From: Psilocybe cubensis
Lineage: Eukaryota
Direction of reading: 5' to 3'
Assembly: GCA_017499595.2 (NCBI GenBank)
Contig: CM039009.1
Span: forward strand, 1,922,001-1,986,000
DNA length: 64,000 nucleotides
Part shown: piece by piece, positions 4,740 through 64,000 of the stretch
Layout of the letters: each line of letters begins with the position of its first letter
Numbering within the stretch: position 1 is the stretch's first letter
The notes under the pieces: model-generated
The model's database searches: none
Seen by the model: the letters and a program-made list of their open reading frames with translations, nothing else
Told to the model about the DNA's origin: nothing
Made by a program: the position numbers and the translations under genes

Positions 4740-5174
4740 ATCTCAATTTTGACCAATGGCAGCAGTACTAGTTGAGTATCAGGCAAAGGGAACGGAACAA
4801 GGAGCTCGGTTAGGAGCAGCGCTGAGCTGAGGCTGAGAGAACAGGCTTTTATAGAAGGCAAGATGATACCAAGAGTGGATATACGTTCTGGATATCTGGG
4901 GTGCAGCGGACCGGGCCAGGAGGGCGGGGGACCAGCTGAACATCCCCCACACCGACAATTCACCGGCTGTGTGGAGAAGAGAGTCAATTACGAATAGGCT
5001 TGGGATGTTTCATGTTCATGTTCATGGGTGTATTTGGGAATTGGTCGTGTAGCTGCTAGCATAAAGGGGTTGGAGCTTGGAGCAGAGCAGAGCAAGAGAG
5101 GTGGGCATGGGAAAGTGCCATTAAAGGACTTTGAATTGAATTTGAATTTGTCAACTTTGAAATCGACGCTTACC

Positions 5175-7922: not shown

Positions 7923-9547
7923 GGAGGGGGACGGGGACAGGGACGGGGGTAAGGATGAGGATGGGGATGGGGATGGAGGAAAGGAACGAGCTAGTTGTTA
8001 GTTGACGGACACGACGTCTTTCCGAATGTCAAATTCCAAATCGTTGATGTTGACGCGACGGCTGGCTTTACACTTCCGACTTTACACTCTCGACTTTTGA
8101 CTGGACTATATATAGATCCAGACTCTCACGCGCACGTCCAGAGCAAGCTGAAGCTAAAGTTTCGACAATTTCCACAGGCGCCGTAAACAGAAAATCCCTC
8201 GCGCGCTCAATATTCATTTCAATTGCTGTTTTGCTGTTTTATTGATATCGCTATCACTATCGCTTGTCCATCGTTTCCCTTGCATACTCTTGTACTTTAA
8301 ATTTACCTGCTCTGTTATACAGTATATTGTGACCTACTGAAAACTGTAAACCATAACGTTTAGATATCTGTCAGATCCGAGGCCAGACTCCGCCCTCCTC
8401 AATCCTGTGATCTTAACAACAACATGCAATCGTAACGGACATTATAACATCCCCAACACCGCAACTCAGTACTTCAGTACTCAAGTACTCGATCGCTGCA
8501 TTATTTCAATATTTCAAATTTTCAAATACCTCTCAGAGCTCAGAAGACACATCTCTTCGGCACTAAAACACCACCGACTTACCACCAGACCGCCCATATG
8601 CCCATAGGCCCATATACCTCATTCGATTTCAATACCCAAGTCCGCAAGTCCGCAAGTCCAAATCCCCAAGTCGCAAGAGGTCGCAAGTCACAAGTTGACG
8701 TCTCTACGTACACACGTGCGCAATTAACCCACGGGCGCCTTTCAAACTTAAAGCCGTCATTACGACTCATACTTACCCCATCTCCTCATTCACCCATCCC
8801 CCATCTCCTCATTCACACATCCCACATCCCTCCTCACACAACCCTCCAATCCAACAAGTACACAGCGAAATGACAGCCTCCTGCGTCTCGTCTCCATCGA
8901 TCCCCACCCACCCACCTTTCACATCACTACAGCACTAAAGCACTGCTTTTCCGGGCCCACTTAGACTCAGCGCCCAAAAGACCTCGAGGCGCTCGGTACA
9001 AGTAAATATGTCCAATGAGCGTATGAGTGTGGGAATGGATCGACTCTGCTAATTAATGTATTGGCGCCCAAATAGCCGAACTCAAACCGGGTCCAGGTTC
9101 AATATTCAATCTCCACGATGGAATCTTGAGTTGTGGATCTAGATATCGTAGGTTTGTATTGTAGCGGTAATGAAGCGGGCGTCCTGTACACCCTATAAAT
9201 GTAAATTGGGGGCAAATGTAAAAATTAATAAATTCAATTTTCGTTTCTATTCATTGAAGAATATAAGATCAAAGATGTGGTATACGATTGGAAAAGGAGA
9301 TCCCCTTTGAGCTAGATGGTTACTTGGATAACAGAAGCAAAGATTGAATCCAGATGTTTCAAACATCGAAGAGCGTATCTAAACAAAAGGAATTTAATCA
9401 CAAAATGGGCCAAAGTTACGAAAATCGTCAACTAAAGTGTTGAAAATATCGAGTTACTTGCAATTTTAGACTAACATGCGCGATATGTGTTCAGGAAGAC
9501 GACAGCGGATGAAGTCAAGTTGGCAGCAAGAGAATCCATCCTTGAAG

Positions 9548-19509: not shown

Positions 19510-22200
19510 ATAAGTTGAATATATGCGTCGAAACAGCATTGGAATATTGAAAAGACACCTCTTAAGTGAGAAAGACTATCTTGATAGTCACTTTAACTGT
19601 CCAAATTTTGAGCTAGCAAGGAGACAGGGGGGATACCGAATGTGAAGGCACGAAGAGGAGGTGAGTGAAACGCCTTGTAAAGCGGAAAGAGGAGTAGACA
19701 AACAAGAGTTTTGAGGCGCATATAGCCACTTGAGACGTTGGCGGAAGTAGAGGTGATGGTGGTGGTAGAGGGGAAAGGAGGTTTGAATTCACAAAAACGC
19801 ATCGCGTCGGGTATTTATAGGCACGGTGGCAAGGTCAAGCAAGAACAAATATGGGTCCATAGAGGCCAAACAGCAAATAAATAATGACATGGAATGACAC
19901 CGAAGGACATGGAATGACGATTCGTAACGACTCGTTAAGCCCTAACCAGCATAAGAGCGATAGTGTGCTTTCAAGTCCCCACTTATCCTCTCTTATCGAA
20001 ATTGAAGGTCACACGACTATTCCGAATCAAATATGTATGACATTAATTGCCCAAAGCGAGTCCATCCGGACATGACAACAACGCGATCTACTCTACAAAG
20101 CCAAAAAGCTGTATAAAACCGATTAAAAGTAACTAAAAGGGCCCATCACAGGGCAGAATAGAAGGTCAAATAAACGAGAAGGTATTGAAATATGAGTGTT
20201 GTGTTGATGATTGTAATCGATATTAATATCTCGGGTTGGGGTTAATCTCGAAACTGTGATTGTGGATGTCGAAAGCAGGTTTCTAGCTAAATTAAAGGAA
20301 GAAAAAAACCTGGGCAAGTTAGTATCCGCGCTCTAATGGAATTACGGAGTAAACTCACATAAAATAAGAAGGTCATACGCATCAGATCTCTTTGTGACTC
20401 GGTGTTTGAACAGGCGTAAGGGCTCCCTCAGATCGTGGAATGAAAGGCAATAGTGCGCTTCAATTTAGGTGAATAATTCTGACTTTGCCCGGTTCTTTGC
20501 AATTGGAGTTTGGTAACAGGCTTGAATATCGTGGTGGATAAAGCGAGCGAAAGCCTTTAGAGTGCTTTGCATGTGAACTGGTAGACAAATAGTGAGGTTT
20601 CACGAGTCCTGAACACCTAAAATTAGAGAGGGACGAAGAATAGGCTTGGAACTTACCAAAAAAGTGATCTTTCGACGCAAAGACCTGACGCATAACCGTA
20701 GTCGCTACTTCAATACTAAAACTAAATGAAAAGAATGAAAACAAAAACGGAAACGAGAACAAGCTATAGAAATACAATGAGAGATCACCCTTTCGGAGCA
20801 TATGATATTTGGCGAGCGGACTCACATATGAAAAGAAACCAGATGCCCCAAGATCCGACTTGGCTCCAAATGGCTGACGAATGGCAATATTTGAATAATT
20901 GTTCCTGATGCGCTGCCAGTGTGCATGTATTGCAGATAACAGCCAAATTTGACGTGCAAGCCTTGCGAAACAAAATTAGGCGGTAATGGGAGAGGGCGAG
21001 TTAAATTACCAGTCATGATCTTTCCAAAGCATGTCAGGGCAAAGAATATCTCGAGTATATCGATTGCTAGAAATATTGCATGTCAAAAGTAGAAAGACCG
21101 GTGGGTATACGAGACTCACTGAAGGCGCCCTTTCCAGAGGAGTGCTCATCCGTATCCCAACGAAACATCGATACTATGGCATAGACTGGTAAGCAAGGTT
21201 ATTGCGCCGAATTTGAGGAACGAAACGTGTTAAAGTATTGCAGTCAATGGTTTGTGGTATCGTGTTGGTTGTCGTCCATGGCTAAGAAGGAAATAAATCA
21301 ACCATATCAAACAACGAAAAGAAACAAACTAACCTCACGCCAACCACCGCTCGCCTAAGCCCGCCCAACACACAGGGTCCAAAGCAAGCTTTTATCAATC
21401 TCCACCCCTGCGATTCACGGTAGAAGCGACGATGTCCTGCAAGTCTACCGCTACTGCTTAGGGGGGTGGGCGAACCAACCAGCACTCCGTACCTCACCCC
21501 CTGGTTTCCACGACCCCTGATTTACAGGGGTGGCGGCGGGGGGGTGCCACACATCGAGCGGGTAGGGTCAAATTTCAACTGCCCCGCATGTCCTAAGACA
21601 ATCGCGCACACCAGCCTGACACCAGCAGACTGGCAATACGCGACCTGAATGGAGTGGTATACTTCTGTGCTGGGCTTCTTGACCGTTGTGTGTGGGCGAG
21701 CCTGCGTTGTGTGGGGTTGGTTAGTGGCTTTTAGGACGGTGAGACTGACGGTATTGGTCCAAGGCGGGATGGTATAATTGCTGTGAGGCGTTGTTAACAA
21801 TGTTCTAACCTAGGCGAGATGGACTTACGCATGTGAGGAGTTGCCAAACCAAGGGCGGTGAAGATAGCTCAAGGCGGGGTGATGAAAGTGCTATCAAATG
21901 ATTTTCTTAGCATGTTTGACAAAGGCGGGTTTACTTCAACTTACTTTAGTTGAATACGAGCTATCACAAGTGGATATAACATCAAAGGAATCAGTTGAGC
22001 TCTTCGAAAATGTAAAGAGATGATGGCGGAAGAGAGTCAAGAGACGATGGAGGTCTCTCGTTCGACCGTCCCATTATTATAGTCTTTTAGGGTATGTTCC
22101 TGTTTGTTTTCAGCCTCCTTCGATCCCGATCTCAGTCATGTCATCCGCCTGTGGACAAAACGAGGAATCTGGTTTCTAAATGCGATTCTTTGTGTGTCTG
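19510..22200 (-). repeat. Family R copy C (close paralog of copy A; core exon 21334-21701)
   Basis: Near-identical to 15340-16110 at offset 5938; more diverged on either side. Confidence 0.85.
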
Positions 22201-35998: not shown

Positions 35999-38900
35999 TT
36001 TTCTTGCCAGAGGGAGGGTGTGGAAACAAAGGGGGAAGGAAAGAGTGCTTGAAGACTTACCTTTCACGTTCAAATGTTGGTTGAGATCTAAGCAAGTTGG
36101 ATTGACGATGACGACAAAGATTAATGAATATTTCCCACGAGCGCGTGACTGCACTCAATGATTCCGAGTAGACCCTGAATAATGGTGAGTTGTCAATGCA
36201 AGCTTTTTACCTTTAACGCATAACCTTAATATGTCAAACTCTGACAGGCCCTCTAAGCGATCACGCACTGGTCGTTCATCATATCACGACACTGTGCCCA
36301 GCTTGAATAGGCACGATGTCATCCACGTCAGCGAAGGGACAATTCGAAATATAGGAGGAGTTTTTCGAGCGACTCGCAGATTTGAGTCGCCTCAACGTGT
36401 CGCTGGAACTTGGGAGCAAGTCACGTCTTGGGAACCGCCGGATGACGAAGAATATGCTTTAAATCCCGACGGGGATTTTTACAATACCGTCGTAGATCAG
36501 GAGGTGGTGGCCGAGGATGGCACAAAAGACACTGTAAAAAGACAACAGAGCAAGGTTTCGGTAAGAAATGAGTACGTTATGACAGCAGTAGACGCTAAAA
36601 CCATGCATAGAAACGGCCTCACGTAGTTTGGAAAGAGACCCACCGTGAAACATATCTGGAAGAGATTCTTCGCTGGGCCGGGCGCGGTGACTTCCGCCAT
36701 GCTACACAGTGTCCAGACTGCCTTGTACGAGGAGTAACGCCCGAGACTCCTGAATTCAGGTGTCGCGAATGCTTTTCGCCTGACCTCGTATGCCAGGCCT
36801 GCTGTGTGAAACGCCACAGATTACATCCCTTTCACCGAATTCAGGTAAGCTGTTTGGCATCCAGTTATCATCTAATATTATCTTTAACATACCTATCTTG
36901 TAGAGATGGACCGGCACCCACTTTTTGGCAGTTTCTCTAAACACAATTGGGGGAAAAATTCAGCTGAATCATTCCAGCGGGTATTGCAAAAACCCAACGC
37001 CGTGTCATGCCAGTTTTTTGGTGCTCCATACGAATGGAATTCATTCGGTCAACTTATTTTACTGTAACTGCTCCAGAGCTATCCCTCATCACTTGCAATT
37101 ACTCCGACGACGGCTATACCCAGCTTCACAAATTACTCCAAAAACAGTTGCAACTTTTGAGTTGCTGCGTCATCTCCATAAAATGGCATTAACTACCAAG
37201 GCCTCGACATATGACTTTTATCGCGCTCTTGAAAAGTCAACAAACAACACAGGGATTAACCTCCCACCCTCGCGTTACCCTGCACTATTCCGGATGATTC
37301 TTCAATGGCGGCATTTACAAATGCTAAAGTGGGCGGGGAGAGGGCATAGCCCCACAGGGGCTGCAGGTACAGGCGAGGGTGAGCTTGCAATTCAGTGCCC
37401 GTCTTGCCCACATCCCAGTATAAATCTTCCTGTTGGCTGGGAAAATGCGCCAGACGAAATGAAGTGAGTTATATTGATGTTCACTAGTATCCGATAGCTA
37501 ACGTTACTACAGATTCCTCTATATGGTTATGATATGCATGGACGCCAACTTCCGATTAAAAAATCAGATGGTGTCTAACTGGTCTCAAGACCCTGGGCTT
37601 GGAATCGGGTGGGCGTATATGATACCACTCAAAGGATATGAGGAGTATGTCAAGAGCCGGCTGTCAGACAAAGACGTAAGATTCAAGAGTTTGAATAGCT
37701 ATTGGTTACTGATACCGGGTCTAGATAAGCACATGCGTTGGGTTTCAAGCACTAGCCAAGGCCAATACAAAATTTTCAATTGGACTACGTTACACGGGCC
37801 TGGGACTTACAGTATGCGGTCGCTCAGAGATGATTATGAGAGTTGGAAATCTACATAAGGGAGAAAGGTGCGTGCTATCAATTTAATGCTAGATGAATTT
37901 GTGTTCTAAGAATTCATAGATATGCCAACATGGACTACATTTTTGCTTCAATTCTTCGAACATTGGCTGTACAATTTGTGCTGGCAAGCTACGATATAGC
38001 TTGTCAGTGGTTCATCAATCTTCTTCGGCGAATCGAAACACAGTGGCCAGATGAAATCAAGCCACGTTCCAACATCACACTGATGCCCGCAATCCCCAAG
38101 CTGCATGAGCCAATGCACAAGCAGCAAAATCATGAGCTATACTCCTACAACTACATGCCTGGTGTTGGTTTATCAGACGGAGAGTGCCCCGAGCGTGTAT
38201 GGGCGCCGCACAATGTCCTGGCAAACGCAACCAAGACTCAGGGTCCGGGTTCACGACATGACACTCTTGACGACCATTTCGGCTTTTGGAATTGGCTCAA
38301 ATATACGTCGATGGGAACTACGTTGCTTCGAAAGTATAAAAATGCGGTGGCTCAGCGAAATATTCAGACAGAGGGCCATCGGGGCTTGACAGATTCTTTG
38401 GAAGACCCAAGACTTGTGCCTGCATGGGAGAAAATGTGTGTCGAATGGGAGAAAGATCCCTTTCCAAAAACCACAGCAAAAAACCCATATTATGTGAAGG
38501 AGACTGGTAAGTGATCCCACCTATATTCATCTATCATATGCCTGATTAGGTATAGGTGCATCTGAAGCTGAAGTCAAGAAGGCCCTTCACGATGAAGAGG
38601 CTGAATTTTTATCTAAAGGTGGAACGTTACCGCACAAAACTACCCCGTCTGTCTTTATTGGTATGGGCCTAGACCTTGAGGAAGCACAGTAAGTTATATT
38701 CCTCGTCTACAACATAAGACTTTAACTTATAACATGGGTGCAGGCGGCGACTTAAACGGCTAGCTACCAACACGAGTGCAGATGCCACTATTCGCCAAGA
38801 AGGCACACTCACGGAGCAGCGAAATATCCTCACTACACGCATTCGGGCATGGGAGCAACTTGTTCCCATCTATATGCCAGGACTGCTTCAGTATCAGACA

Positions 38901-39267
38901 GATAATCCGCCGACAGAGCAGTCAACGCACGCCGAAGACATTGTCCTGTGGCTTCCATCAATGGTACCCGCAGAATGCAGAGAAACTATCTGTGTGGCCG
39001 GCTTGGCTGATGTCGAACAGAAGCTGCGGATGGCGCATATGACCGACTCTTTGAATGCAATACGGCAGATTCTCAAAATCAAGTCACGAATGATTGAATT
39101 CAAAAATAAAAACATACGAGGACAACGTGGGGGAACCAGGTCAACGTCAGTTATCGACCGCGTGCATGAGCGTGCACGATTTGCAGCAGGAAAATATCGT
39201 GCAGCTCGGAAAGCTTATTTCGAGTTGGCAGGACCTGGTAACTGGGAGCAGAATTACCGTATACTTG

Positions 39268-39715
39268 TGTCAGGGCAACACTATAATCAGTGTGACAAGG
39301 CCACCAACAAAGATTAAGCAAGAGAGAGAGAGAGAGCAGAGGGAGAGTAAGAGAGCAAAGAGAGAATAAGAGAGTGAGATAGATTCAATGGTTCTAAGAG
39401 ATCACACCAATGATAGTGGATATCCTAAGAGATTGAAGCTGAAGCTACAGCTACCTACAAGTCCAGTATTTATACTCTACAGCTATTCTAGAATATTCCC
39501 TACATTACATCATAAAGGAAGGTTAAAGAATAAAAGTGACATCATATAGAAAAAGGATGAGTAAGACTAGGAATCATATAGAATTTACTAGAAAGAAGTG
39601 GACCAAGAAGGCTGTGATGAAAGAAATAAACTATCTAATCAGATAATTGATAAGATAATGAAAGGATAAGATAATTCTGTGAAGATAAAGAGGGAAAACT
39701 GGAGAAACCCTGACA
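39268..39715 (-). repeat. 3' LTR
   Basis: TGTCAGGG..CCCTGACA; same sequence as 45196-45643. Confidence 0.95.
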
Positions 39716-42700
39716 TCACCCCCTCTCTAAGGCACATTTTCCACAATGTGCACATGGATGGGTTAGTTTAGAGGGTTTAAGAAGAGGAGGAGGTTCAGTA
39801 AAGTTAATAATAGGAGTGAAAGAAAGTCTATCAAAGGTCACAGCAGAAATCCTTCTAGGTGCTGAAGGATGTTTGGCATGGAAGTCCTTGATAGCCTTAG
39901 AAGCATTTTTCAAATGCTCTGCAGGCTCCCAAGTGCATTCTTCATTAGGATAGTTCTTCCATTTGACCAAATATTGAAGTTTGTTTCTAAAAAGTCTGCT
40001 GTCCTTGATAAATTCAACTTCCCACTCAGGATTTTCTCCTTGAATGACAGGAGGTGGTCTAGAAGGAGGCTTTCTTCCTACAATATCTGGGTGATAAGGT
40101 AGAAGTTTAACCACATTGAACACTGGATGGATTTTCATGGTAGATGGCAGCTTAAGCTCATAGGCATTAGGGCTAATAACTTTGGTAATTTTGTAAGGCC
40201 CATATCTTTTATCATCCAATTTCTTGGAGGGCCTATCAGTTTTGAGGTCCTTGCCATCCAACCATACCAAATCCCCAACTTTATACTGAGTTGGAGTACC
40301 TCTGTGTCTATTATAGAATTTAGCCATATCATCAGCAGCTTTTCTAAGTGCAGACTCTGCTTCTTTCCTGGCTTCTTCCATATTTTTCACAAAGGTATCC
40401 ACAGTGTCCATTTTACTATCTCTAAGGGGTTCAGTGCCCATTCTGGGATGTCTGCCATTATTGAGCATGAATGGTGTCTGCCTGGTTGAAGCCTGAACTC
40501 TATTGTTATAAGAGAATTCAGCTAGAGCTAACCATTCAACCCAATCATCTTGTCTATGGTTTATAAAGAGTCTAAGATACTGCTCAATTTCTTGGTTAAC
40601 TCTTTCAGTCTGACCATCAGTTTGGGGATGGTAGGCTGTAGATGAGGCTGTCTGGATACCAAGTATTGAGTTGAGTTCTTTCATAAACCTTGAGACAAAC
40701 TGTGGACCTCTATCACACAGAATTTTAATGGGTAAGCCATGGTGTTTCCAGACATAATCTCTGTATAGTCTGGCTGTCCCTTCAGAAGTGACTTCATCTG
40801 TAGTAGGGATAATGTGGATCATTTTACTAAGTCTATCCACAACCACCATAATGGCATTATACCCTTGACATTCTGGTAACCCCATAATAAAGTCCACAGA
40901 GATGCATTGCCAGACATCAGAGGGAATCTCAGTAGGAATTAAAAGGCCAAGAGGTTTGGCTGGAAAGGTTTTGGTTCTGTTGCATCTATCACAACCTCTG
41001 GTATAGGCTGCAATAAAATGTGACATTCCTGGCCACCAATAATTCCTAGAGACTAGCTCAATTGTCTTCCATTTCCCTGGATGTCCAGCAATGAAGGCAT
41101 CATGGTGCAGTTCCACAATCTTTCTTCTAAGATCTTTGTCCTTGGGAACATACACCTTCCCCCTGTAGAGAATAAGGCCTTGTTCTTCTGACCATTCCTG
41201 TCCTTCAATCTTCTTGGTAGAAGATTTCTTGAGCTCCTGAACTGCCTTGACCACCTTTTCATCCATCTCCTTAGCTTCTCTAATCTTCTTAAGAAGATCA
41301 TTTTCTGCACCAGTAATGGTAGCATGACCCTGCTTGAGAGCCTGGATTTTAAAGTAGGAAGGTTTGAGGAGAACTACATTTTGGTTATCATTCTCTCCCT
41401 TTTTATGATCTGGTCTCCTAGACAAAGCATCTGGCTTAAGAGATCTTTTACCAGGCCTATGATGAAGAGTAAAATCAAATCTGGACAGGAAGAGTGACCA
41501 TCTGGCTTGCCTTCTGCTGAGCTTTTGGGCAACCATAAAGTACTCTAAGTTTTTGTGGTCTGTCCAAATCTCAAAGGAATGTTGGGTTCCTTCAAGATAA
41601 TGTCTCCATTCATCTAGTGCTCTGATAATAGCCAGCATCTCTTTGTCATGGATCTCATAATTCCTTTCTACTTCAGATAGACTCTTAGACATAAAGGCTA
41701 CAGGATGCCATTTCCCATCTGATCCTTCCTGAGATAAAACAGCCCCAGTAGCATAATCTGAACTGTCTGCTTCAACTTTATATGGCTTGTTATCATCAGG
41801 GAAAATCAAGACAGGTGAAGAAGTGACTTTCTTCTTTAACTGGTCAAAGGCTTCCTGCTGTCTAAGACTCCATCTCCAGACTGTTCCTTTCTTTGTCAAT
41901 TCATGAAGGGGCTTAGCAATGTCTGCAAAATCCTCTATGAACCTTCTATAAAAATTAACAAATCCCAAGAATGATTGGACATCCTTGACATTTTCAGGTT
42001 CAGGCCATTTAGAAACTCCCTCTACCTTGACAGGATCCATCTCAATCCTGCCTTGTGAAATGATTAGTCCAAGATATTCAATCTTTTCCTTTTCAAATTC
42101 ACATTTCTCTGCTTTAAGGTAGAGTTTGTTCTGTTCTAAGATTTGCAGAACTTGCTTGACTACCTCTCTATGATGATCAAGAGTCTCAGTGAAAATTAAA
42201 ATGTCATCCATGTAGACAATGACAACATTTCCATCAATGAGCTCAATAAAGATATCATTCATCATAGTTTGGAAGGTAGCAGGACTATTGGTTAAACCAA
42301 AGAACATGACCAATGGTTCAAACAGCCCTCTATTGGTTCTAAAGGCTGCTTTCCATTCATCTCCCTTTTTGATTCTGACATTGTTAAATCCCCACCTAAC
42401 ATCAAGTTTGGTGAAGTATTTGGCTTTGCTGAGTTTGGTGATGATGTCAGAAATCAATGGAAGGGGGTAGGAGTTCTTGATGGTCATTTCATTCAGTTTT
42501 CTATAGTCCTGGACAAGCCTAAGAGATCCATCCTTCTTCTTGACAAAGAATACAGGGGAGGCCATAGGTGACTTGGAGGGTCTAATCCTGCCAGACTTCA
42601 GATTTTCCTCTAAAAAGGCATCAAGTTCCTTTTGTTCATTGGGAGAAAGAGGATAAATCTTGGATCTGTAAGGTTCAGAACCAGGTTTCAGCTCAATAGC

Positions 42701-43603
42701 ATGATCCCAAGGCTTTCTGTCTGGTAGCCTATCAAAAGATTCCTTTGAAAAAACACCTTTAAACTGATGATAGTGCTTAGGAACAGTTTCTTCAAAGGTT
42801 TTTTTAGGGGAATCAGCTTGCTGATGAGACTCTTCTGCTAATCTTTGAGACATAGTAGAAGTAGCATTAATAGACTGCTTCTGAGGATGAAGGTATGAGA
42901 TAAAAATTCTATCCTCAGGCTCAATCTCAGAATCAGAAGAATCTTCAATAGAATCATCTTCTTCTTCATCAAATTGAGGGAGTTTCCTCCTTTTGACTGC
43001 AGCTATTTTCTGCCTCTTTCTTCTGGCTCTTTTGGCTTCCATTTGGCAGTCAGAGGGACATCTAATAAACTGGACATCCCCTGTCTTCCAATCAACATCT
43101 GGATTATGGTGCCAAAGCCAAGTATGTCCAATGATAGCAGATTTGTCTCCCAAGTCACAAACAGCAAAGGTGGCCCTTTCTGTATGGTTTTTGTGTACCA
43201 TAATTAAGTCTACTTCCTCATGGATAGAGCCACTCTTGTTGAGAGTACCATCAACATTATAGACTGGAATGGCTCTAGAAAGTTTCCTTGTGTTGAGATT
43301 ATGATACTTCACAAAACCAGAATGCAGAAAGAGGCCAGTAGCTCCAGAATCAAGCAAAGCATCAACAGATAACCTTTTCTCTGTGTCCATTGTCTTTAAG
43401 ATGACAGACAAATGGGTAGAGGTTTTAGGATTATGGTTGAGGATGTAGATCTTTTCAGGGAAGGTAGAAAGAGAGGAAGAAGAAGACATGATTTCTGCAC
43501 CAGAATCTGAAGACTGAGGATCAAGTCTGTCAATTTCATTTTCTAGTACATTAAATCTATTCCATTGGGACATGTCTTTCACCAATGGTGCTTCTAAAAA
43601 TTT
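39716..43603 (-). CDS. pol: Pol polyprotein: protease, RT, RNase H, integrase, chromodomain
   Basis: LLDSGAT; YMDD; HH-CC zinc finger (HHDAFIAGH..CDRC); integrase core; chromodomain WEVEFI..QYLVKWKNY..TWEP; entered by -1 frameshift. Confidence 0.97.
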   Translation of the reverse strand, partial: KFLEAPLVKDMSQWNRFNVLENEIDRLDPQSSDSGAEIMSSSSSLSTFPEKIYILNHNPKTSTHLSVILKTMDTEKRLSVDALLDSGATGLFLHSGFVKYHNLNTRKLSRAIPVYNVDGTLNKSGSIHEEVDLIMVHKNHTERATFAVCDLGDKSAIIGHTWLWHHNPDVDWKTGDVQFIRCPSDCQMEAKRARRKRQKIAAVKRRKLPQFDEEEDDSIEDSSDSEIEPEDRIFISYLHPQKQSINATSTMSQRLAEESHQQADSPKKTFEETVPKHYHQFKGVFSKESFDRLPDRKPWDHAIELKPGSEPYRSKIYPLSPNEQKELDAFLEENLKSGRIRPSKSPMASPVFFVKKKDGSLRLVQDYRKLNEMTIKNSYPLPLISDIITKLSKAKYFTKLDVRWGFNNVRIKKGDEWKAAFRTNRGLFEPLVMFFGLTNSPATFQTMMNDIFIELIDGNVVIVYMDDILIFTETLDHHREVVKQVLQILEQNKLYLKAEKCEFEKEKIEYLGLIISQGRIEMDPVKVEGVSKWPEPENVKDVQSFLGFVNFYRRFIEDFADIAKPLHELTKKGTVWRWSLRQQEAFDQLKKKVTSSPVLIFPDDNKPYKVEADSSDYATGAVLSQEGSDGKWHPVAFMSKSLSEVERNYEIHDKEMLAIIRALDEWRHYLEGTQHSFEIWTDHKNLEYFMVAQKLSRRQARWSLFLSRFDFTLHHRPGKRSLKPDALSRRPDHKKGENDNQNVVLLKPSYFKIQALKQGHATITGAENDLLKKIREAKEMDEKVVKAVQELKKSSTKKIEGQEWSEEQGLILYRGKVYVPKDKDLRRKIVELHHDAFIAGHPGKWKTIELVSRNYWWPGMSHFIAAYTRGCDRCNRTKTFPAKPLGLLIPTEIPSDVWQCISVDFIMGLPECQGYNAIMVVVDRLSKMIHIIPTTDEVTSEGTARLYRDYVWKHHGLPIKILCDRGPQFVSRFMKELNSILGIQTASSTAYHPQTDGQTERVNQEIEQYLRLFINHRQDDWVEWLALAEFSYNNRVQASTRQTPFMLNNGRHPRMGTEPLRDSKMDTVDTFVKNMEEARKEAESALRKAADDMAKFYNRHRGTPTQYKVGDLVWLDGKDLKTDRPSKKLDDKRYGPYKITKVISPNAYELKLPSTMKIHPVFNVVKLLPYHPDIVGRKPPSRPPPVIQGENPEWEVEFIKDSRLFRNKLQYLVKWKNYPNEECTWEPAEHLKNASKAIKDFHAKHPSAPRRISAVTFDRLSFTPIINFTEPPPLLKPSKLTHPCAHCGKCALERG

Positions 43604-44703
43604 TTCTTTTCCTCATCTTTCTGCTCCTTGCCTTCCAAGATTAATTTCCCAAAGTAGTCAGCCAGTTCTTCATGGGTCATAGCATTGATGTTAACTGATG
43701 ACCTGCAGTTTACAGCCTTATGACCAGGCTTTCTGCACTTGAAGCAAACAATTGGCCTAACTGACTTCCATCCAGAGTCAACCTCCATGGGAACTACATC
43801 TGGTTGCTTTGCCTGAGCACCAAAGGTCCTAGAGCTGCTATTGGAAAAGACTGGAGGATTTGGAGTAGGCTTAGGAACAGCCTTGGGAGTTGGGGCTTTA
43901 AGGAAGGGAGAAGAAGAGGAGGAGGAAAGAGACTTGGTAAAGGCCTCACTCTGTCTCCACTGCCTATCTAGCCTGGTACTCCATTTAATCCATCCATCCA
44001 AGGTTTTGGGCATGTCAGGAACATAGTAGACTGCATTCCTGAGATTTTCATTAAGCCCAGCCTTGAATTGGTCTACCAAAGCAGCATCATTATACCCAGT
44101 ATCTGAGATCAGAGCCCTGAAGCTAGCAACATACTCATCAGCAGTCTGTCTGCCTTGCTTGAGCATGTGCATTTTATGCTTAGCTGTGTTGGAGGGGTCT
44201 GGATCTGCAAACACTTCCCTAAATTCATAAACAAAGTCAGCCCAAAGACCTTCTTGGGACTGAGCATTGTCTATTACTTTAGTCTTCTCATATGCCCACT
44301 TCCCAGCAGTACCTCCTTTCATATGAGATAGAGCACAAATAACTTTCTGAAAGTCATCTGTAATCCCTTTCCCATAGAAATATAATTTAAGCTGACTGAG
44401 GAAGTTTTCTGCCTTCTCCATAGAACCATCAAATGGATCTGGAGGTGAGACTTTAATGACAGAGTGTGAACAGGAAGGGGCAATATGAGGGGTAGGGAAA
44501 GAGTGAATATCTAGAGCAGCAGGTGGTGGTGGTGGTGGTGGTGATGGTGACTGACTGACTGGTTGCTGAGGGTGTGGTGGAGTGGATGATGACTGCTGCT
44601 GCTGTCTAAGAAAATTCAACTCTTGGGTAAGGAGCTGGACCTGATGCATGAGCTCTTCCACAGAAGGAGTGGTGGGAGGCAATTGGGAGGGGTCCATGTC
44701 CAT
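43594..44703 (-). CDS. gag: Gag with CCHC zinc knuckle
   Basis: PDPFDG, LKQGRQTADEYVASF, PMEVD, CFKCRKPGHKAVNC. Confidence 0.93.
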   Translation of the reverse strand: MDMDPSQLPPTTPSVEELMHQVQLLTQELNFLRQQQQSSSTPPHPQQPVSQSPSPPPPPPPAALDIHSFPTPHIAPSCSHSVIKVSPPDPFDGSMEKAENFLSQLKLYFYGKGITDDFQKVICALSHMKGGTAGKWAYEKTKVIDNAQSQEGLWADFVYEFREVFADPDPSNTAKHKMHMLKQGRQTADEYVASFRALISDTGYNDAALVDQFKAGLNENLRNAVYYVPDMPKTLDGWIKWSTRLDRQWRQSEAFTKSLSSSSSSPFLKAPTPKAVPKPTPNPPVFSNSSSRTFGAQAKQPDVVPMEVDSGWKSVRPIVCFKCRKPGHKAVNCRSSVNINAMTHEELADYFGKLILEGKEQKDEEKKNF

Positions 44704-45195
44704 GGGTAGGGGTAGGTAGGCTCTCTGATGTGTGTGTGGGAGAAGCTATCTACTGAAAGTGCCCTTGAAACTATACTAAGTATTCTAAAAAAAATATCTA
44801 TCTACTGGATACCCAGTTGTCACACCACTCAGGGCTCTAAACCTAGGATCACAGGGTTACTGGATATTTCCTAGACCACCAAAAACAGAACACTAGTAGG
44901 ACTGTGTCTGCCCCAACAGTTGGTATCCCTATCTACTAAGTTTACACACAGCACACAACAGAGAGTAGGAAAGATGATGAGCCAAAGATCTTGAGGAAAG
45001 GTCTTGAGGAGGATGTTGAAGATTGGTGGAGATGTAGAGATTGGTAAGAAGATTGGTGAAGAGGTTGATGAAGAGGTTGGTGGGTTGGAAGTGGAGGAAG
45101 AAGGTTGAGGTAATGGTGTTGAAGAGGTTGAAGAGGTGAAGAGTTTGGTGTTGAAAGAGAGATGGTGGAGTTGTCTTGAGAGAGCTTCAATCTTC

Positions 45196-45643
45196 TGTCA
45201 GGGCAACACTATAATCAGTGTGACAAGGCCACCAACAAAGATTAAGCAAGAGAGAGAGAGAGAGCAGAGGGAGAGTAAGAGAGCAAAGAGAGAATAAGAG
45301 AGTGAGATAGATTCAATGGTTCTAAGAGATCACACCAATGATAGTGGATATCCTAAGAGATTGAAGCTGAAGCTACAGCTACCTACAAGTCCAGTATTTA
45401 TACTCTACAGCTATTCTAGAATATTCCCTACATTACATCATAAAGGAAGGTTAAAGAATAAAAGTGACATCATATAGAAAAAGGATGAGTAAGACTAGGA
45501 ATCATATAGAATTTACTAGAAAGAAGTGGACCAAGAAGGCTGTGATGAAAGAAATAAACTATCTAATCAGATAATTGATAAGATAATGAAAGGATAAGAT
45601 AATTCTGTGAAGATAAAGAGGGAAAACTGGAGAAACCCTGACA
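45196..45643 (-). repeat. 5' LTR (minus-strand TATAAATA at ~45395-45402)
   Basis: Same sequence as 39268-39715; followed on the minus strand by a PBS complementary to the LTR itself. Confidence 0.95.
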
Positions 45644-46540
45644 ACTTGCAGACGGAGATATTCGAGCATATCAAGATCCTGCTCGGCTAGGACCCAGAAA
45701 GGGACGCCGCGGAACGCTTGATGATGAACAGGTCGCGGCAGGGATGGATGTAGAGAATCAGCCAGAAGAGGGGGATCTTTTCCTGTTCAACGAGGAGCGC
45801 ACCAAGCGTCAAGGATCGGGTCAGACACGGCGAACTCTGTCATGGATCTGGACGGTTCGTACCAATGCTGCAGACACAACAAGCAAAGAAGAGAAAGATG
45901 ATCTCTTGCGTGTTGAATGGGCGAGGAGCCGAGCTAGGGTCATGCGCGCAAAAGAGGAGGTTTCGATGTTGAAGGAAGAGATGCGGCGAACATTAGTGTT
46001 TTTGGACTGGAAAGCTGTCTGGTGGCGAGAACGCAAAAACGCTATCTCTAACGCGAGTAGCGATCGCTTGGAGGCCATTTCCGCATTTGCCATTGTGCAA
46101 GCTGACCTTCAAGATTCCTTGGCGGAGCATTTCCGAAATCTGTGGCGGTCTCCATTACAAGAGGCAACATTGCGTGCTGCAGGTTCTTCAATTGCTGCCA
46201 CTGAGCCCACATCAGTTTCTTCGACTGACCCTGCCTCGACATTGACATTGCTTGGAGATGGAGATGAAGGTGATGATAACGGTGACGACGACGACAAGTA
46301 CAACGAGGAAGAAATGTTTGAAGAGAGTGGTGTGGAGGAGTTGGATATCACTGCAAATAGTGTAGCAGCATTGGTGTAAATCAACATTAAATTCGTAGCT
46401 ACATACTTTACATGCAATTTAGAACGATATGTCGACGAGGAAAAAGGTTACAGAAATGCTGCCAAGCAAAGGTGGATAGCTGCCGCGTGCAGATAAGCTG
46501 CAAGAGATTCCAGCGGGAGTATGACGCGGTATGACGAAGT

Positions 46541-49716: not shown

Positions 49717-52011
49717 ATGCCCCAGCCTGAAGCTGCTACCATGTCTCCACACATGCCAGCTCGAGGTGATCGCAGTGCACCATCATTTGATCCCACAAAG
49801 CCCAGGGAGCTTTGCCGTTATTTTTCCGACCTAGAATTCTTGTTTTCAATCTCAAATGTCACCGATGATACGGAACAGAAGAAGCATGCGGTTAGATACG
49901 TCAGTCTTGACGTTGCAGACATCTGGGAAACGCTTCCAGAGTTCACCAACCCTCTCAAGAATTACCAGAGCTTCAAAGCGGCTGTTATGGACCTTTACCC
50001 CGATGCTAATGACGCATACAGGTACACCATGTCAGACATGGATTTATTAATTGGAAACCGTCAACGTTTAGGCATCCACACCCTCTCTGATCTCGCAGAA
50101 TATCATTCCCAGTATATGGCGGTCACAAACTTCCTATGCTCGAAATCCAAGCTGTCTACACTGGAACAGAAGCGTGGTTATGTTCGTGCATTCCAACCGG
50201 CGCTTTGGGCAAAGATTTCGCAACGATTGCAACTCAAGAAGCCTGACCATTACCCAGACGAGCCCTACGACATAATCGACGTCCAGACAGCTGCAAAATT
50301 TGTTTTACATGGCACCCACACAGCAAGCGCTTTGGCAATCCCTTCTTCTACTCCTACAGCTTCTATCCCCGACGTCTCAATTAAACCAGAGCAACTCGGT
50401 TCTATATTCACAGAATTTACCAAATCGATTATAGAGGCGCTTAATAGTACTCAGAATCGCTCAAGATCAACAGAACCAACCACTCAATCTGGAATCCGAG
50501 AAGTCAAATGCAATTTCTGTGGAAAGGATCATTATATTCGTAACTGCGACCTCGTTGAAGAGTATAGGCGCGCTGGAAAGTTAAAGCGCAACACAGAAGG
50601 CAAAATTGTACTCCCCTCAGGTGCATTCATCCCCAGAGACATCCCTGGCACCTTAATGAAGGAAAGAATCAATGAATGGCATCGTCGCAACCCAAATCAA
50701 CTTGCTACAGCTACTCTATCCGCCAGTACATTATTTGGTGCGGTTTCGTCAGTTCAAACGCCTTTGGAATCGTTAAGCGCCCGTCAGACAATCCAGTTGA
50801 CATACCACCTTACTGCTGACGATAGGATCACTTTGCTAGAGGCTGAACTCTTCAATCTGCGTGCCAAACGACCTGGGTTCACTCCAATTATTCGTACTCG
50901 AGCACAGAAAGAAAGGGCACCCGTTGCTGAAGAAGACAGAGAGATTTCGCCACCTAGAGACTCTGAAGCACCCAAACCGTCTACTTCTACTCCAGATACC
51001 TCGTCTCAGCCTCCCATGGTTCAAAATAACGATATAACTGCGCCCAGAGCGACTACAGACGATCCTCAAACGGAACATCCGTTCAGAAACGCATTAGACG
51101 CCGTGTATATGCCTCCTCAGTCCAGAAATGTTGCAGCACTTCCAAAGCCCGCACCCAAGAAGAACGAACCGGCCTATCGAACATTCCCCCCCATCTACGA
51201 CTCTGACGTTGCCAATACAGTGTATAATCGGTCTCTTGAAGCTCCAGTCACCATTACTCAAAGGGAACTTCTGTCTATCGCTCCAGAGATCCGTTCACAA
51301 TACAGGGATTCCACAACGTCTAAACGCAGTGCAAACACGGATAAAATAGCTCAGACAAACCTGTTGGAAAACAGGGCGGACCCTACAAGCAATACAGTTG
51401 TTTTCAATGCCTCCACAGTGCATCCTTTGCCCTCCAGCCAGCACCGAAGTCCCCCAGAAGGTTCTACAGTTATTGACGACCCCTTTGACATTTATTATCG
51501 CTCCCTTCGCCCTGGACAACACCCCGACCCCAACAAAATTATTGTGGCTAAGGAATCTTCAGCACTTCGTTCAATCTATCCTATTGTTGACAACTCTCTC
51601 AAAGTGGAATGTATTCTTGATCCTGGCTGCCAGATAATAGCTATGTCTGAAGATGTTTGCCATAGCCTCTCCCTCATCTATGACCCGACTATCAAACTCA
51701 ACATGCAGTCTGCAAATGGCACAGTGGACCAGTCTCTAGGCCTCGCTTGAAACGTCCCCTTCTTGATAGGAAATCTCACCTTCTACATGCAGGTTCATAT
51801 TATCCGAGAGCCCGCATATGACATACTCTTTGGACGACCATTTGACATCCTAACCCAGAGTGTAGTCCGAAACTTTGCTAATGAAGACCAAACCATTACC
51901 ATTAACGATCCCAACACTGGTCAAACTGCAACTATACCCACCTCGCCTCGTGGACCACCTAGATTCCTCAAGAAAACTCACCACCATTGCCACGAACACC
52001 AGGATTTTTAA
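49717..52011 (+). pseudogene. gag: Gag-protease with premature TGA at 51748-51750
   Basis: CNFCGKDHYIRNC knuckle; aspartic protease ILDPGCQII..ILFGRPF continues in frame after the stop. Confidence 0.85.
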
Positions 52012-54692
52012 TATCCGAGGGTCTAGGTTCTGATAGCGACATTCTTGCTCTCAATATTTGCACTGAAGAAGGCCATATTTATATTCAAGCTACTCAAGAA
52101 CTAGACTCCTCGGAACATCCTCAAGCCTCGTATTTTACCGCCTGTACCATAAATTCTGATTCCACACCCAAAGCTATCAATTCCAACACTCTTATTTCGT
52201 TGTCTCCCTCGTCTAACAGTTTATTCCACCCAGTTTCTAACGTTTCCACTCAAAATTTCGACCCAGTTTCAACGTTTGCAGCGTCTAAGAAGAAGTACAA
52301 GCCCGTAGCCAAGAAGACTCGCCCTGTTTACGCAGAATTACCCGAAAAATATCGCATAGTTCGCAATATTTCAGGCAACCCACTCGCTAACCTTCCCATT
52401 CTCAACCCAAACCCACCCGATTTTGTACCAACCGGCCGCTATACTGAAGAGAGAATGAAGCAGTTCGATGAAGTACACACCCCAGGATTCCTCTGGACCG
52501 AAGAACGAAAATTATTACACCATTTCATGATGCAACATCAAGAAGCTTTCGCATGGAACGATACAGAAAGAGGTCACTTCAGGGAAGACTTCTTTCCCCC
52601 AGTGAACATCCCAGTTATTCCTCACAAACCTTGGGTACAGCGCAATCGACCCATTCCTCCTGGTATCTATGACGAACTCTGCAAGTTATTACAGAAGAAA
52701 ATTGACGCTGGTGTCCTTGAGCGATCCAATTCTCCGTACCGAGGAGCATGGTTTACAGTCACTAAAAAGGATGGCAAGTCTCTACGAATTGTACAATCCC
52801 TAGAACCATTAAACGCCGTCACAATAGCACACTCTGGAGTGCCTCCCTTCACAGAACAGCTCGTAGAACAGTTTGCTGCAAGAGCATGCGGTGGAATGCT
52901 GGATTTATTTGTTGGATACGATGAACGGGCGCTTGCTGAATCCTCCCACGATTATACCACTTTCCAGACGCCTTTTGGCGCCCTCCGACTTACCACACTT
53001 CCAATGGGATGGACCAACTCGGTCCCCATCTTCCACGACGACGTTACATACATTTTACAGCCAGAAATTCCGCACACAACCATTCCTTACATCGACGACG
53101 TCCCAGTTAGAGGCCCAGCTACTCGATACATATTGCCTTCTGGAGACTTTGAAACAATTCCCGAAAACCCAGGAATTAGGCGGTTTATTTGGGAGCACTT
53201 CCAGGGACTCAGTTGTGTTGTCCAACGCATGAAATATTCCGGCGGAACGTTCTCTGGTTTCAAGTCGCTACTCTGTGGACCAGAAATAACAGTGCTAGGC
53301 CATCGTTGCACTTATGAAGGCCGTCTCCCAGATCTGAGCAGAGTTTCCGCTATTGTGAACTGGGGACCATGCTCAGACCTATCCGACGTTCGATCCTTTC
53401 TTGGTACCATGGGTGTTTGTAGAATATTCATTCGGAACTTTTCCCATCGTGCTAATCCTCTCATTAAACTCACCCGCAAGAACCAACCGTTTGAATGGAC
53501 TCAAGAACAAGAAAAAGCGCAGCAAGACCTTAAGGAAGCACTCCTGAAATCACCAGCCCTTCGTCCCATCGACCACTCATCCCCAGCACCAGTCATTCTT
53601 GCAGTTGACACGTCTAAAGATGCTGTGGGACACTTACTCTGTCAGTGCGATTTACAGAACCCCCGCATTCGATATTATTCAAGATTTGGATCCATTACTC
53701 TAAACAAACGTGAAGCGCGATTCTCTCAACCAAAACTCGAGTTATACGGCCTCTTTCGCGCATTTCGAGCCCTCAAACTTTACCTCATCGGTGTACGAAA
53801 TCTTGTCGTCGAAGTAGATGCGAAATACATCAAGGGGATGCTTTCCAACCCAGACCTTGCCCCTTCTGCAAGTATTAACCGATGGATTACAGCGATTTTA
53901 ATGTTTCATTTTGATCTAGTTCATGTACCAGGTACTCACCACGGACCAGACGGATTATCACGCCGAAAACCACAGCCAGGAGACGAGCCCGAGCCTGAAG
54001 ACGACTTCGAAGACTGGATCGATGAAATGCAAGGTTTTATGCATATTCTGAATCCCATTACCACAGCACTCACTGTGCAAGTTCCAACACTCGTATACTC
54101 CACCTCCCTCGCGCCAGAACCATCTCCCTCAGAAAATAACGACCATTCTACACCAAATACATCATCCGACGACTCCCAGACTTCCTATTCCATTATTCCT
54201 CAATCCGACGTTGCACACAAGGCTGATGAACGCACATTAAAGGTCAAAACATGGCACGAAACGCTTAAGCGCCCAGACGGCATGACGGACTCGGAATATT
54301 CGACATTCCTTCGTTACTGCACAGAATTCTTTGTGGCATCGGATAGACTATGGAGAAAGGATCACCATGGACATCATAAGCTCGTCGTACCCATAGAGCG
54401 ACGTTTATTCATTATTTCTTCAGCTCACAACGACGTTGGACACCATGGATTCTTTGCTACAAACTCACTAATAACAGAACGATACTGGTGGCCTTACATG
54501 GGCTTTGATATCGCTTGGTTCATTCGTACCTGCCACCTCTGTCAACTTCGTCGTACCCAGAACGTTCTAATCCCACCAACCGTTGCAATTCCAGCTCCAC
54601 TCTTCGCCAAAGTCTTTCTAGACACAATGCACCTTCCCCCATCTGGAGGCTACAAATACATCATCCAAGCTCGATGTTCGCTTTGCCACTTC
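52002..54692 (+). pseudogene. pol: Pol (RT, RNase H, N-terminal integrase), 3'-truncated
   Basis: LPMGWTNS, YIDD, LAVDTS, HNDVGHHG..CHLC; homology ends at ARCSLCHF. Confidence 0.88.
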
Positions 54693-54917
54693 CATCAGCA
54701 ATACCGGGGCCAAGTAGGTAATGATCCGTAGTGATACGTAATTCTGTAGTGCCCATAGTAACGGTCCCATTTGGGTAACACACACTGATGTACCTGTAGC
54801 TTGGTACCAACGTGACATGGTACTCTGTAGTGATCTGTATTGTAACGCGAGTGCTGTGTAGCGGCGTGTAGCATGCTTACCATGGTCCATACCCCTCTGT
54901 ATACAACTGACATACAA

Positions 54918-61699: not shown

Positions 61700-64000
61700 G
61701 TGAGACGTTGAAGTTTTGTAGTGCAAGCCCAGAAGATTTCCCCCGTTGCCCGACTCCAAGCTGAAGAAATTCTGGCGTTTCCCTTCGAAACGCAGGTCGT
61801 TCGTCAGACTCTGGAAAACATGTTGCCAGAGTCGCACCCACTCCGCGTAGGTCTTAATTGGATTGCCATTTATGGTACTAATATCAAGTTTCTGTAGAGG
61901 ATGGTGGATTTCCTCCGACGATATGAGGACTTCACCTTTTTGAATTACGATGTTTCATCATCGAGCATGCGAGCGGCCATCAAGTATAGGCAAAGCTTGG
62001 CTGCCCTTCAGAACAGCATCGTAGAGACACCCTGCGTAACCTCGGCTACATGGGAGCAGGCGGGTAGCTTATTTGCAGCATACCGTCTACTCGATCTCGT
62101 AGCGTTGTGGCCAGCAGCCTTTGGACCATCGTTGCCGGTGACCGTGCCCCTGAATGAAATACAGGCCAGCACAGGAACTAAGGAAATATTTTCACGGTTC
62201 AAGGTATGCGATCATGAAGTCACTCAATGTTAATTCTTAATTTTCAAACAATTATTGTAGCTTGTAGATGACTTGAAGGACTGGCCGGCAATGCTCTGCT
62301 CTGCCAGGAAGCGCATCCTCAGAGCCGACTCTAAGTCGCACAGAAACATCAACACCCCTTCTATCAGTGACACGCCGTCATCCGCTTTCACCCAGGGCGG
62401 GCCCTCGGAATCAACGCTATTACTCTGTCTGGCGCGTAACCACTTCAAGGGTGTTGTGGGGAAAATAATCGGGAATGTGTACTGCGCCTCGCTACACTAC
62501 CAAATCTTGTCAGGAATGCGCGGTATGAAGGACGATGAACACGTTCTACCAGACATTCCAACGGACACGGCTACTCTTGCAAATCTCTAGTAAGTTTTCT
62601 TTCCTCTATTCATTGATACAATCTGCTCAACATACCCTAGTGCAAGCGGCCATCCTGATGCTGCGTTGTTCCTCTCAGAGGTCACGCCATCTCATTTAAA
62701 AATTCCTCTGCATGTCGCCCTTTTCATATCCCCCATCCTTCTTTTTGTGAATAAATCTTGGTATTCTAAGAAATGTGACCGGGAGCAGCTGCTTAAAGTA
62801 GGTGTATCCACATCCTCCCAGTTTAACTTGGATTAACGCACTCCTTTAGGCCTCAAAAGCGCTCGGTAATTGTCGCCCCCGTGTTCTGCGTGAAGTGGAG
62901 ATGGAAATTTGGAAAATCATTGCAGCGCAAAATTGCGACATCCAGTCAGCCTTATATAAACTTGTTATCTCAGACTGCTGGATGGAATGCGAGCGGGTAA
63001 TTGCACAAGATCCCGCGTTTCACTTTTTCATATGTGTGTTCTACGTACTGTAACAAAATAACAATTTAAACTAATAATTGGCCAGCGTCAACGAGCAGCG
63101 CCGAGGTTACAGCAAATTTTAACCTAGCAAGGCGCAGCACTGAACCACACGGTAAGTTATAAGCAAAGTCTGCGTCAATTACATGATTTAAATCCGTTTA
63201 AAACAGCTCAACTTCAGACCGTTTCCCATCATGGTGAAAAAACCACCTGTGAAGGGTCCGACGCAGACGCGGAGGGTGACGATGATCACGAAGTGGACAC
63301 GACAGAAATGGTCAGCATGGGTCAACGGGAGAACGGGGACAATACGGTCCCTACCTCAAATATACAGCCTCCGGAAGACACGTCTTCAGTGGCTGGCAAG
63401 GATGTCAGCATGGGTCAACAGGAGAACGGGGACAATACGGTCCCTACCTCAGATATACAGCCTCCGGAAGACACATCTTCGGTGGCTGGCAAGGATGTGC
63501 CCACGGACGAGCAACCTGGTTTGCCGCGGAGTGATGATATTGGATCTGGTCTACTTCAGACTGAGAATACTGGGCCCTCATCTGCAGGGGATTGTGAGAT
63601 GAACGTCGATCCGGAGCAAGCTGATGTCGACCATCAAATGGAGGATGGTCCACATACCAATGGTCCAGAAAATTTGGGAGATGGCGGGCTGGACAAGGAG
63701 CTGAAGGGTCTTCTGACGAGGCAAATCGTATGTCGGAAGTTCACGAGGGCGAAAAGCAGGGGCAAGACGGAGAACGACCCGACGAGGAGAACCGAATGTC
63801 AGAAGATGGTGAGGAGGAAAGGCCAGACGACAGTTCGTCGGACAATGAGACCGAGAAGCAGGGGCAAGGGGATGTTCCACCAGTCCAGGAGGACAGAATG
63901 TCGGTCGATGGAGAGGGGGTAGGCCCAGAGCAAAACAATGATTCCTCAGACATGGAGAGGAATACATTGGAAGACAGCCAAGGCGAAAAGGAGGGGGAGA
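61700..64000 (+). CDS. Multi-exon hypothetical protein with an acidic repeat region (start uncertain, runs off the window)
   Basis: Series of ORF segments separated by ~50-nt GT-AG introns; 93-bp tandem duplication at 63311-63496; apparent frameshift at ~63690. Confidence 0.55.

Follow-up and report, generated by a model that had tools for sequence, protein, structure and literature searches.

We analyzed a 64-kb stretch of Psilocybe cubensis DNA (contig CM039009.1; this whole stretch is called the window, and all coordinates are window positions) that carries a retrotransposon at positions 39268-45643, and we found this element to be intact, recently inserted, and entirely free of CpG dinucleotides. 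The element is a complete Ty3/Gypsy (Metaviridae) chromovirus on the minus strand, and its parts are listed in Table 1. A first-pass annotation of the same DNA had described an intact, recent insertion with unbroken open reading frames (ORFs), identical long terminal repeats (LTRs), and a perfect target-site duplication, and each of these points was borne out: the gag frame (369 aa) and the pol frame (1285 aa) are open, with no in-frame stop among their 1654 codons, the LTRs agree at 448 of 448 positions, and ACTTG stands on both sides. The pol translation gave Pfam matches to reverse transcriptase (RVT_1, residues 344-505, E = 1e-37), RNase H (RT_RNaseH, residues 568-699, 5e-39), and integrase (Integrase_H2C2, residues 812-869, 7e-20; rve, residues 889-983, 3.5e-10; SH3_Tf2-1, 3.5e-18), with a chromodomain at the C-terminus (PF00385 Chromo, residues 1184-1233, E = 2.5e-15); the order of reverse transcriptase, RNase H, and integrase is that of the Metaviridae. 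The gag translation matched Ty3_capsid (3e-10), Retrotrans_gag (1.4e-9), and zf-CCHC (7e-4), the last corresponding to one CCHC zinc knuckle. No Pfam match to a protease was obtained at E <= 0.001, and a protease DSG motif is present at pol residues 75-77, in columns that do not vary among 40 homologues. Residues D75, D456/D457, D894, D954, and E990 of pol are likewise invariant in these 40 homologues, and we take them to be catalytic (protease DSG, the reverse transcriptase DD pair, and the integrase D, D, and E). By its ORF coordinates pol lies in the -1 frame relative to gag. No further copies or solo LTRs of the element's family were found in the 64-kb window.

Table 1. Parts of the CpG-free chromovirus and the direct repeats that border it, in window coordinates.
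Feature	Positions	Strand	Basis and remarks
Target-site duplication, left, ACTTG	39263-39267		Identical 5 bases directly outside both LTR ends
3' LTR (element orientation), 448 bp, TG...CA, 8-bp terminal inverted repeat	39268-39715	-	448/448 identical to 45196-45643
pol ORF, 1285 aa, 0 CpG	39716-43573	-	Translation, Pfam matches, codon counts
Polypurine tract AGAGAGGGGG	39719-39728	-	3 nt upstream of the 3' LTR, within the end of pol; putative role, from position
gag ORF, 369 aa, 0 CpG	43594-44703	-	Translation, Pfam matches
Candidate -1 ribosomal frameshift heptamer, A AAT TTT	43597-43603	-	Directly before the gag stop; putative function
5' untranslated leader, 492 nt, 0 CpG	44704-45195	-	Part-wise CpG count
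Self-priming primer-binding site, 11 nt	45183-45193	-	Complement of the predicted first 11 transcript nt
5' LTR, 448 bp	45196-45643	-	Identical partner of 39268-39715
Target-site duplication, right, ACTTG	45644-45648		Repeats the left copy

The CpG content of the element was counted exactly and compared with that of its surroundings. Not one CpG was observed in its 6376 bp (40.9% G+C), against 265.8 expected from the C and G content, and the count was zero in every part (13.4 expected for each LTR, 20.5 for the 5' untranslated leader, 57.7 for gag, and 156.6 for pol). The CpGs that border the element lie at 39258 and 45653, which leaves a CpG-free gap of 6395 bp (39259-45652) that agrees with the element boundaries to within 10 bp on either side; the second-longest CpG-free gap in the window measures 230 bp. 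The observed-to-expected ratio (o/e) for CpG is 0.93 in each 5-kb flank, 0.85 over the entire window, and 0.76 to 0.97 in the 1-kb bins (49-55 kb) that cover a second Gypsy-like region. The first-pass annotation, in which no CG had been noticed in the LTRs, gag, or pol and a couple of hundred CpGs had been estimated as the expectation, was therefore accurate on both counts, and the flanks and second Gypsy-like region that it called CpG-rich have near-normal ratios; an ordinary CpG level in the element is excluded. All of the other 15 dinucleotides are present, CG alone being missing, and GpC occurs 213 times (o/e 0.80). On the sense strand TG (442) and CA (466) are balanced, which rules out strand-specific editing of complementary DNA (cDNA). 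The 95% upper bound on the true CpG o/e of the element is 0.011, and if an equilibrium ratio of 0.05 is assumed the probability of finding no CpG is 1.7e-6.

The loss of CpG is synonymous throughout the coding sequence. All 90 arginine codons are AGA or AGG (AGR), as had been claimed from a reading of the sequence, with 54 AGA and 24 AGG in pol, 4 AGA and 8 AGG in gag, and no CGN codon in either gene, and the Arg content of pol is normal (78 of 1285 residues). TCG, CCG, ACG, and GCG are each absent, Ser, Pro, Thr, and Ala being coded by NCH triplets. The same avoidance is seen across codon boundaries: among codons ending in C or T, all 227 that precede a codon starting with G end in T and none in C, whereas before other codons the ratio of C to T is 234:305 in pol and 76:82 in gag (43-48% C). 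Every Arg column and active-site column that is invariant in the 40 homologues is kept in the element, and we therefore see no scars of CpG to TpG or CpA change. Because the conversion of CGN to AGR needs a C>A transversion and is impossible by deamination, the pattern is not the erosion of this copy. The signs of a decayed copy, whether through deamination of methylated C or through a process resembling repeat-induced point mutation (RIP), were looked for in the element and not found: there are no stops, the conserved Arg residues are retained, and the LTRs are identical. The earlier statement that the loss is not decay after insertion is upheld on these grounds, as the loss costs no amino acids. 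We read the absence of CpG as most probably a heritable coding style of an active lineage, carried without amino-acid cost. The element joins the lack of CpG to a coding capacity kept by synonymous choice, the combination by which a methylation-escape class of transposons, as proposed here, would be recognized.

Relatives of the element show the opposite association between CpG content and integrity. We fetched 94 related loci, all with at most 60% amino acid identity; a metagenome scan gave at least 80 loci (42-60% amino acid identity among the matches listed), two IMG/VR scans yielded 2 and 13 more, with identities of up to 53%, and no relatives were found in a collection of prokaryote genomes. 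None of the 94 fetched loci is CpG-free, their whole-locus o/e values ranging from 0.13 to 1.22 and their longest CpG-free gap being 1646 bp. A stop-free frame of at least 1000 aa is present in 14 of the 94, and these have o/e values of 0.65 to 1.2 and many CGN codons, whereas the CpG-poor relatives (o/e 0.13-0.7) are broken by 2 to 18 in-frame stops. The number of in-frame stops was inversely correlated with CpG o/e in two large clades (Spearman coefficients of -0.71, n = 40, and -0.83, n = 29), and the stops arose mainly from TGG>TAG, CGA>TGA, and CAG>TAG changes, which amount to C>T at CpA and CpG and resemble the spectrum of RIP. AGR codons dominate in a large clade of relatives (about 5 CGN to 65 AGR, or roughly 90% AGR), with o/e values of approximately 0.5 to 0.65 in its least decayed members. 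In a tree of the reverse transcriptase-to-integrase core, built with FastTree, a fast method, and rooted at the midpoint, the element stood alone on its branch as sister to a CpG-rich clade that uses CGN codons, and the large AGR-dominant clade fell outside both. The usual pattern in this group is that loss of CpG means death, and the element reverses it.

Closer relatives bear on the age of the CpG-free state. The nearest pol protein cluster has 84% amino acid identity; in Psilocybe cf. subviscida it has six full-length copies (KAF5321726.1 and five paralogues), which are spread over different contigs. A sequencing run with a related family (X13) gave two listed pieces with 30 and 45 differences from the element over about 235 to 265 bases (approximately 83-87% identity); none of the 38 differences listed creates a CpG, although the 19 changes of the T>C or A>G type would be expected to give about 4.6 (P of about 0.005), and at several TG or CA sites the difference is a transversion. 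In the same run the word depth of the related family over 40.5-43.6 kb was approximately 3000 to 9000, and near-identical pieces of the element had a depth of 2 to 4; because of the former value the sister family must be extremely abundant in another organism. As an indirect proxy for codon usage at greater distances, we scored Arg columns with two states in a set of 28 proteins that share 68% or more identity with pol, and found 35 exchanges with residues one step from AGR (K, S, T, M, I) vs 4 with residues one step from CGN (H, C, Q, W, L, P). The corresponding ratios were 5:7 in a CGN-rich control clade (Fisher P = 0.0015) and 30:12 in the AGR-dominant clade (P = 0.05). As judged from these indirect comparisons, the AGR-only, CpG-avoiding state appears to be older than the element's own family.

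Copy number was estimated from run X19, a raw Illumina DNA data set from a related strain, whose reads were placed on the element with one LTR and flanking sequence. Depth was approximately 25 to 28 across the 6 kb of flank and rose to about 1500 internally, corresponding to some 55 copy-equivalents. Of the 71,697 reads placed, 42,740 (60%) were at least 99% alike to the element, and a further 24,892 were 95 to 99% alike. Hundreds of reads at the LTR edges carried loose ends; as these differ at both edges, we conclude that there are many insertion sites as well as solo LTRs. Sub-family indels in the leader and rare internal deletions were also detected. Variants in this run (1058 rows in total) fell at 227 places for C>T plus G>A and at 277 places for T>C plus A>G, which given the base content is a mild per-base excess of C>T/G>A. 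The element sequence was present in 16 runs; these come from 8 studies and carry at least 5 different coded organism labels. A further run that is RNA by guess only (X14) gave six short pieces at a depth of 2 to 4.5 and is uninformative on expression. Taken as a whole, the family looks recently active, young, and high in copy number.

The arrangement of the 5' end is that of Tf1-type self-priming, as predicted from the sequence. In Tf1, the first approximately 11 nt of the transcript prime reverse transcription from a site beside the 5' LTR, and no transfer RNA (tRNA) is used. LTR positions 276-286 of the element (45358-45368) are the exact 11-nt reverse complement of the primer-binding segment at positions 451-461, which begins 3 nt after the 5' LTR, and no other match of this length exists. 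The sole TATAAA of the LTR (45397-45402) is located 34 nt upstream of the self-primer segment, and the predicted transcript start is 45368. The self-primer and primer-binding segments pair with each other in the minimum-free-energy fold (dG of -40 kcal/mol, z of -1.98). A tRNA-primed mechanism was considered and dropped in favor of self-priming because the site adjoining the LTR does not start with TGG; no tRNA genes were found in the 64-kb window.

The insertion lies within older transposon-associated sequence. When the element was excised in silico together with one of the two ACTTG repeats, a 421-codon frame on the plus strand became open across the junction (38733-39267 joined to 45649-46376), which indicates that the element interrupted an earlier open ORF associated with a transposon; a KDZ transposase fragment (37930-38514) adjoins the rejoined frame. 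Insertion at such a site is in line with chromodomain-guided integration into other repeats. The second Gypsy-like region (49717-54731) is unrelated to the element, its similarity to the element's pol being 23% identity over 337 aa, and it contains two ORFs with DUF4100, RNase H, and integrase zinc-binding domains and no reverse transcriptase match. An old pair of direct repeats (13790-15601 and 19652-21540) consists of units of about 1.8 kb, spaced by approximately 5.9 kb, with a normal CpG level; the two are about 79% identical in their core and contain blocks of 92 to 93% identity, with a third partial copy near 16.4-17.8 kb, and they are candidates for long LTRs or a segmental duplication. 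Between the two repeats, transition differences were found at 33 of 207 CpG positions (0.159) vs 103 of 664 other C/G positions (0.155). An ORF at the end of the window holds tandem coding repeats at 63311-63496 and 63745-63929, with units of 93 nt and approximately 100 nt that are 96% and 72% identical, respectively. The window also contains an SPT5-like ORF that matches a Psilocybe cubensis protein at 99% identity, in agreement with an origin from this agaric or a close relative.

We favor the explanation that the element represents an active lineage from which CpG is kept out by selection related to CG-specific methylation in the host, and we give this reading a probability of roughly 55%. 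A 2026 review describes methylation in most Agaricomycotina as DNMT1-type and essentially restricted to CG, which supports at that general level the first-pass assertion that Agaricomycetes methylate transposon CpGs. Under the favored explanation, copies that bear CpG would be heritably methylated, silenced, and mutated by the host DNMT1-type system, and a CpG-free lineage would be unable to hold CG methylation. Selection among copies would then strip CpG until none was left, in a lineage that is still amplifying, and such escape would matter most for an element with a chromodomain integrase that lands inside other transposons. For the element itself we infer that methylation would have been the selective agent and that the element would be expressed and unmethylated. 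The first-pass annotation had gone as far as to propose a lineage that purged its methylation targets, stays active, and is invisible to silencing; the recent amplification (some 55 copy-equivalents, mostly at least 99% alike) agrees with the second part, and invisibility to CpG methylation follows logically from the absence of CpG, whereas purging for the sake of escape would be one possible history.

Several results from the window favor a role for selection. Mutation pressure by itself seems insufficient here, because o/e values of 0.76 to 1.0 persist in the flanks and in the degenerate second Gypsy-like region, because transitions in the old repeat pair are not enriched at CpG, and because a count of zero needs an o/e below 0.011, which is far under the value of approximately 0.2 (about five-fold depletion) that the same review gives for methylated human DNA. 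Selection among lineages is required in any case, since the 90 of 90 AGR codons are unreachable by deamination.

The same driver, CG-directed methylation, is shared by the explanation that ranks next, in which heavy CG methylation, or a CpG-directed RIP-like deaminase, acts as a mutational sieve through which only master copies lacking essential CpGs survive, so that immunity is a by-product. We consider this less likely than selection for escape, yet a serious rival. In relatives from other hosts, low CpG accompanies decay (correlations of stops with CpG o/e of -0.71 and -0.83), the stops of those relatives trace most often, or at least often, to CGA>TGA, and an entire clade of relatives is already AGR-dominant. 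Published reports add CpG-biased C>T change in Tricholoma matsutake transposons and a paucity of TCG in those of Microbotryum, and a near-deterministic process acting at each site suits an exact zero better than weak selection does. Within the window, however, the other repeats and remnants retain their CpG, and the old repeat pair has the same transition frequency at CpG (0.159) as elsewhere (0.155). The change from CGN to AGR is beyond deamination, so that selection among lineages would still be needed, the C>T/G>A excess among the X19 variants (227 vs 277 places) is only mild, and Horns et al. report no clear RIP-like pattern for three Agaricomycotina.

A recent horizontal arrival from a donor that had already shaped the CpG-free state, which would make the element uninformative about its present host, is improbable. 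The composition of the element (41% G+C and no CpG) contrasts sharply with its surroundings, the family is young and bursting, and at least 5 coded organism labels, from 8 studies, are attached to near-identical sequence, all of which would suit such an arrival. The coded labels may nevertheless be mere strains or sister species, the donor is not known, the 84% cluster with six full-length copies in the congener P. cf. subviscida suits vertical descent, and indirect signs of AGR-only usage extend through the clade of at least 68% identity.

Selection at the level of RNA or cDNA, by a host factor that recognizes CpG in transcripts or replication intermediates, would be an analogue of the CpG sensing of viral RNA that operates in vertebrates, and we regard it as more improbable still. 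Every transcribed part of the element lacks CpG and the balance of TG and CA does not contradict the idea; against it, U3 (sense positions 1-275), upstream of the predicted start, is also CpG-free, although it is transcribed from the 3' LTR, and we know of no fungal factor that senses CpG in RNA, although no search aimed at one was made. A sequencing or assembly artefact or an engineered CpG-free construct is effectively refuted by the independent Illumina reads (60% of those placed being at least 99% alike), by the occurrence of the element in 16 runs from 8 studies, by the conserved Arg residues being coded by AGR where miscalls would give TGN or CAN, and by a genuine insertion with target-site duplication.

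Selection for escape from host CG methylation thus keeps our preference, and the following points weigh against it. The premise that this host methylates its DNA is drawn from general knowledge of the Agaricomycotina. CpG-rich transposon remnants persist nearby and CpG decay is weak, so that methylation pressure could be weak overall. Selection for escape at any one CpG should be weak for the last remaining sites, and a lethal or mutagenic process acting per site explains an exact zero more easily. None of the runs listed as containing the element is an RNA run. The Arg-exchange proxy is indirect, exchange between R and K is biochemically favored, and the comparison with the AGR-dominant control is borderline. 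The CpG content of the approximately 55 copies was viewed through the best 40 of 1058 variant rows, and the relatives at 70 to 85% identity are known as proteins alone.

If escape from methylation is the correct explanation, it may be carried one step further, to a proposal that we offer tentatively and at slightly less than even odds: the element may be the end point of an arms race, having rid itself of the sole dinucleotide open to heritable methylation by its host, with an immunity encoded in its sequence both to CG methylation and to the mutation of methylated C. Its chromodomain integrase would permit placement in methylated heterochromatin while it stayed transcribable, the approximately 55 near-identical copies would be the pay-off, and the element would be the first naturally methylation-proof autonomous transposon to be described from a fungus. 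CpG-depleted transposons are usually dead, and here the copy with no CpG is intact, young, and high in copy number. If confirmed genome-wide, the family would provide a natural experiment on whether CG methylation limits transposons in mushroom-forming fungi, it would show that a transposon can lose the recognition site of a defence completely and at no cost to its proteins, and the question could be tested directly by comparing the natural element with a version in which CpG is restored synonymously. A natural CpG-free promoter and LTR backbone might also resist silencing in basidiomycete transformation.

In its architecture the element resembles the fungal Tf1/Tf2-like chromoviruses, with which it shares TG...CA LTRs, a 5-bp duplication, a CCHC gag, the order protease-reverse transcriptase-RNase H-integrase, SH3_Tf2-1, and a chromodomain. 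It differs from them in lacking any CpG, whereas the 14 intact relatives have o/e values of 0.65 to 1.2 and use CGN for Arg. The plant retrotransposon ONSEN is reportedly poor in CG and CHG, and vertebrate retroviruses and RNA viruses exhibit CpG suppression and AGR-biased Arg usage, which are read as escape from CpG recognition; in these cases the depletion is strong, in another host kingdom and against another defence, and the element has a complete absence across 6.4 kb. Among basidiomycetes, CpG-biased C>T change is described for Tricholoma matsutake transposons. The element is like such CpG-depleted, methylated copies in that CpG is the affected dinucleotide and the host is a basidiomycete with presumed CG-specific methylation; decayed copies, however, carry stops, non-synonymous changes, and residual CpG, and the element has neither stops nor CpG. 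Horns et al. (2012) mention that transposons of Microbotryum (Pucciniomycotina) have few TCG triplets at non-synonymous positions, and the idea common to both cases is that lineages shed the sites at which a genome defence strikes. In Microbotryum the bias is partial and concerns one trinucleotide at non-synonymous positions, whereas in the element every CpG is gone, from coding, synonymous, and non-coding positions alike. A full-text literature search returned no published report of a CpG-free fungal retrotransposon and none on the composition or methylation of Psilocybe transposons. CpG-biased decay of basidiomycete transposons and the loss of hypermutation targets by transposons are already in print, and what is new is the extreme case, the complete absence of CpG from an intact element.

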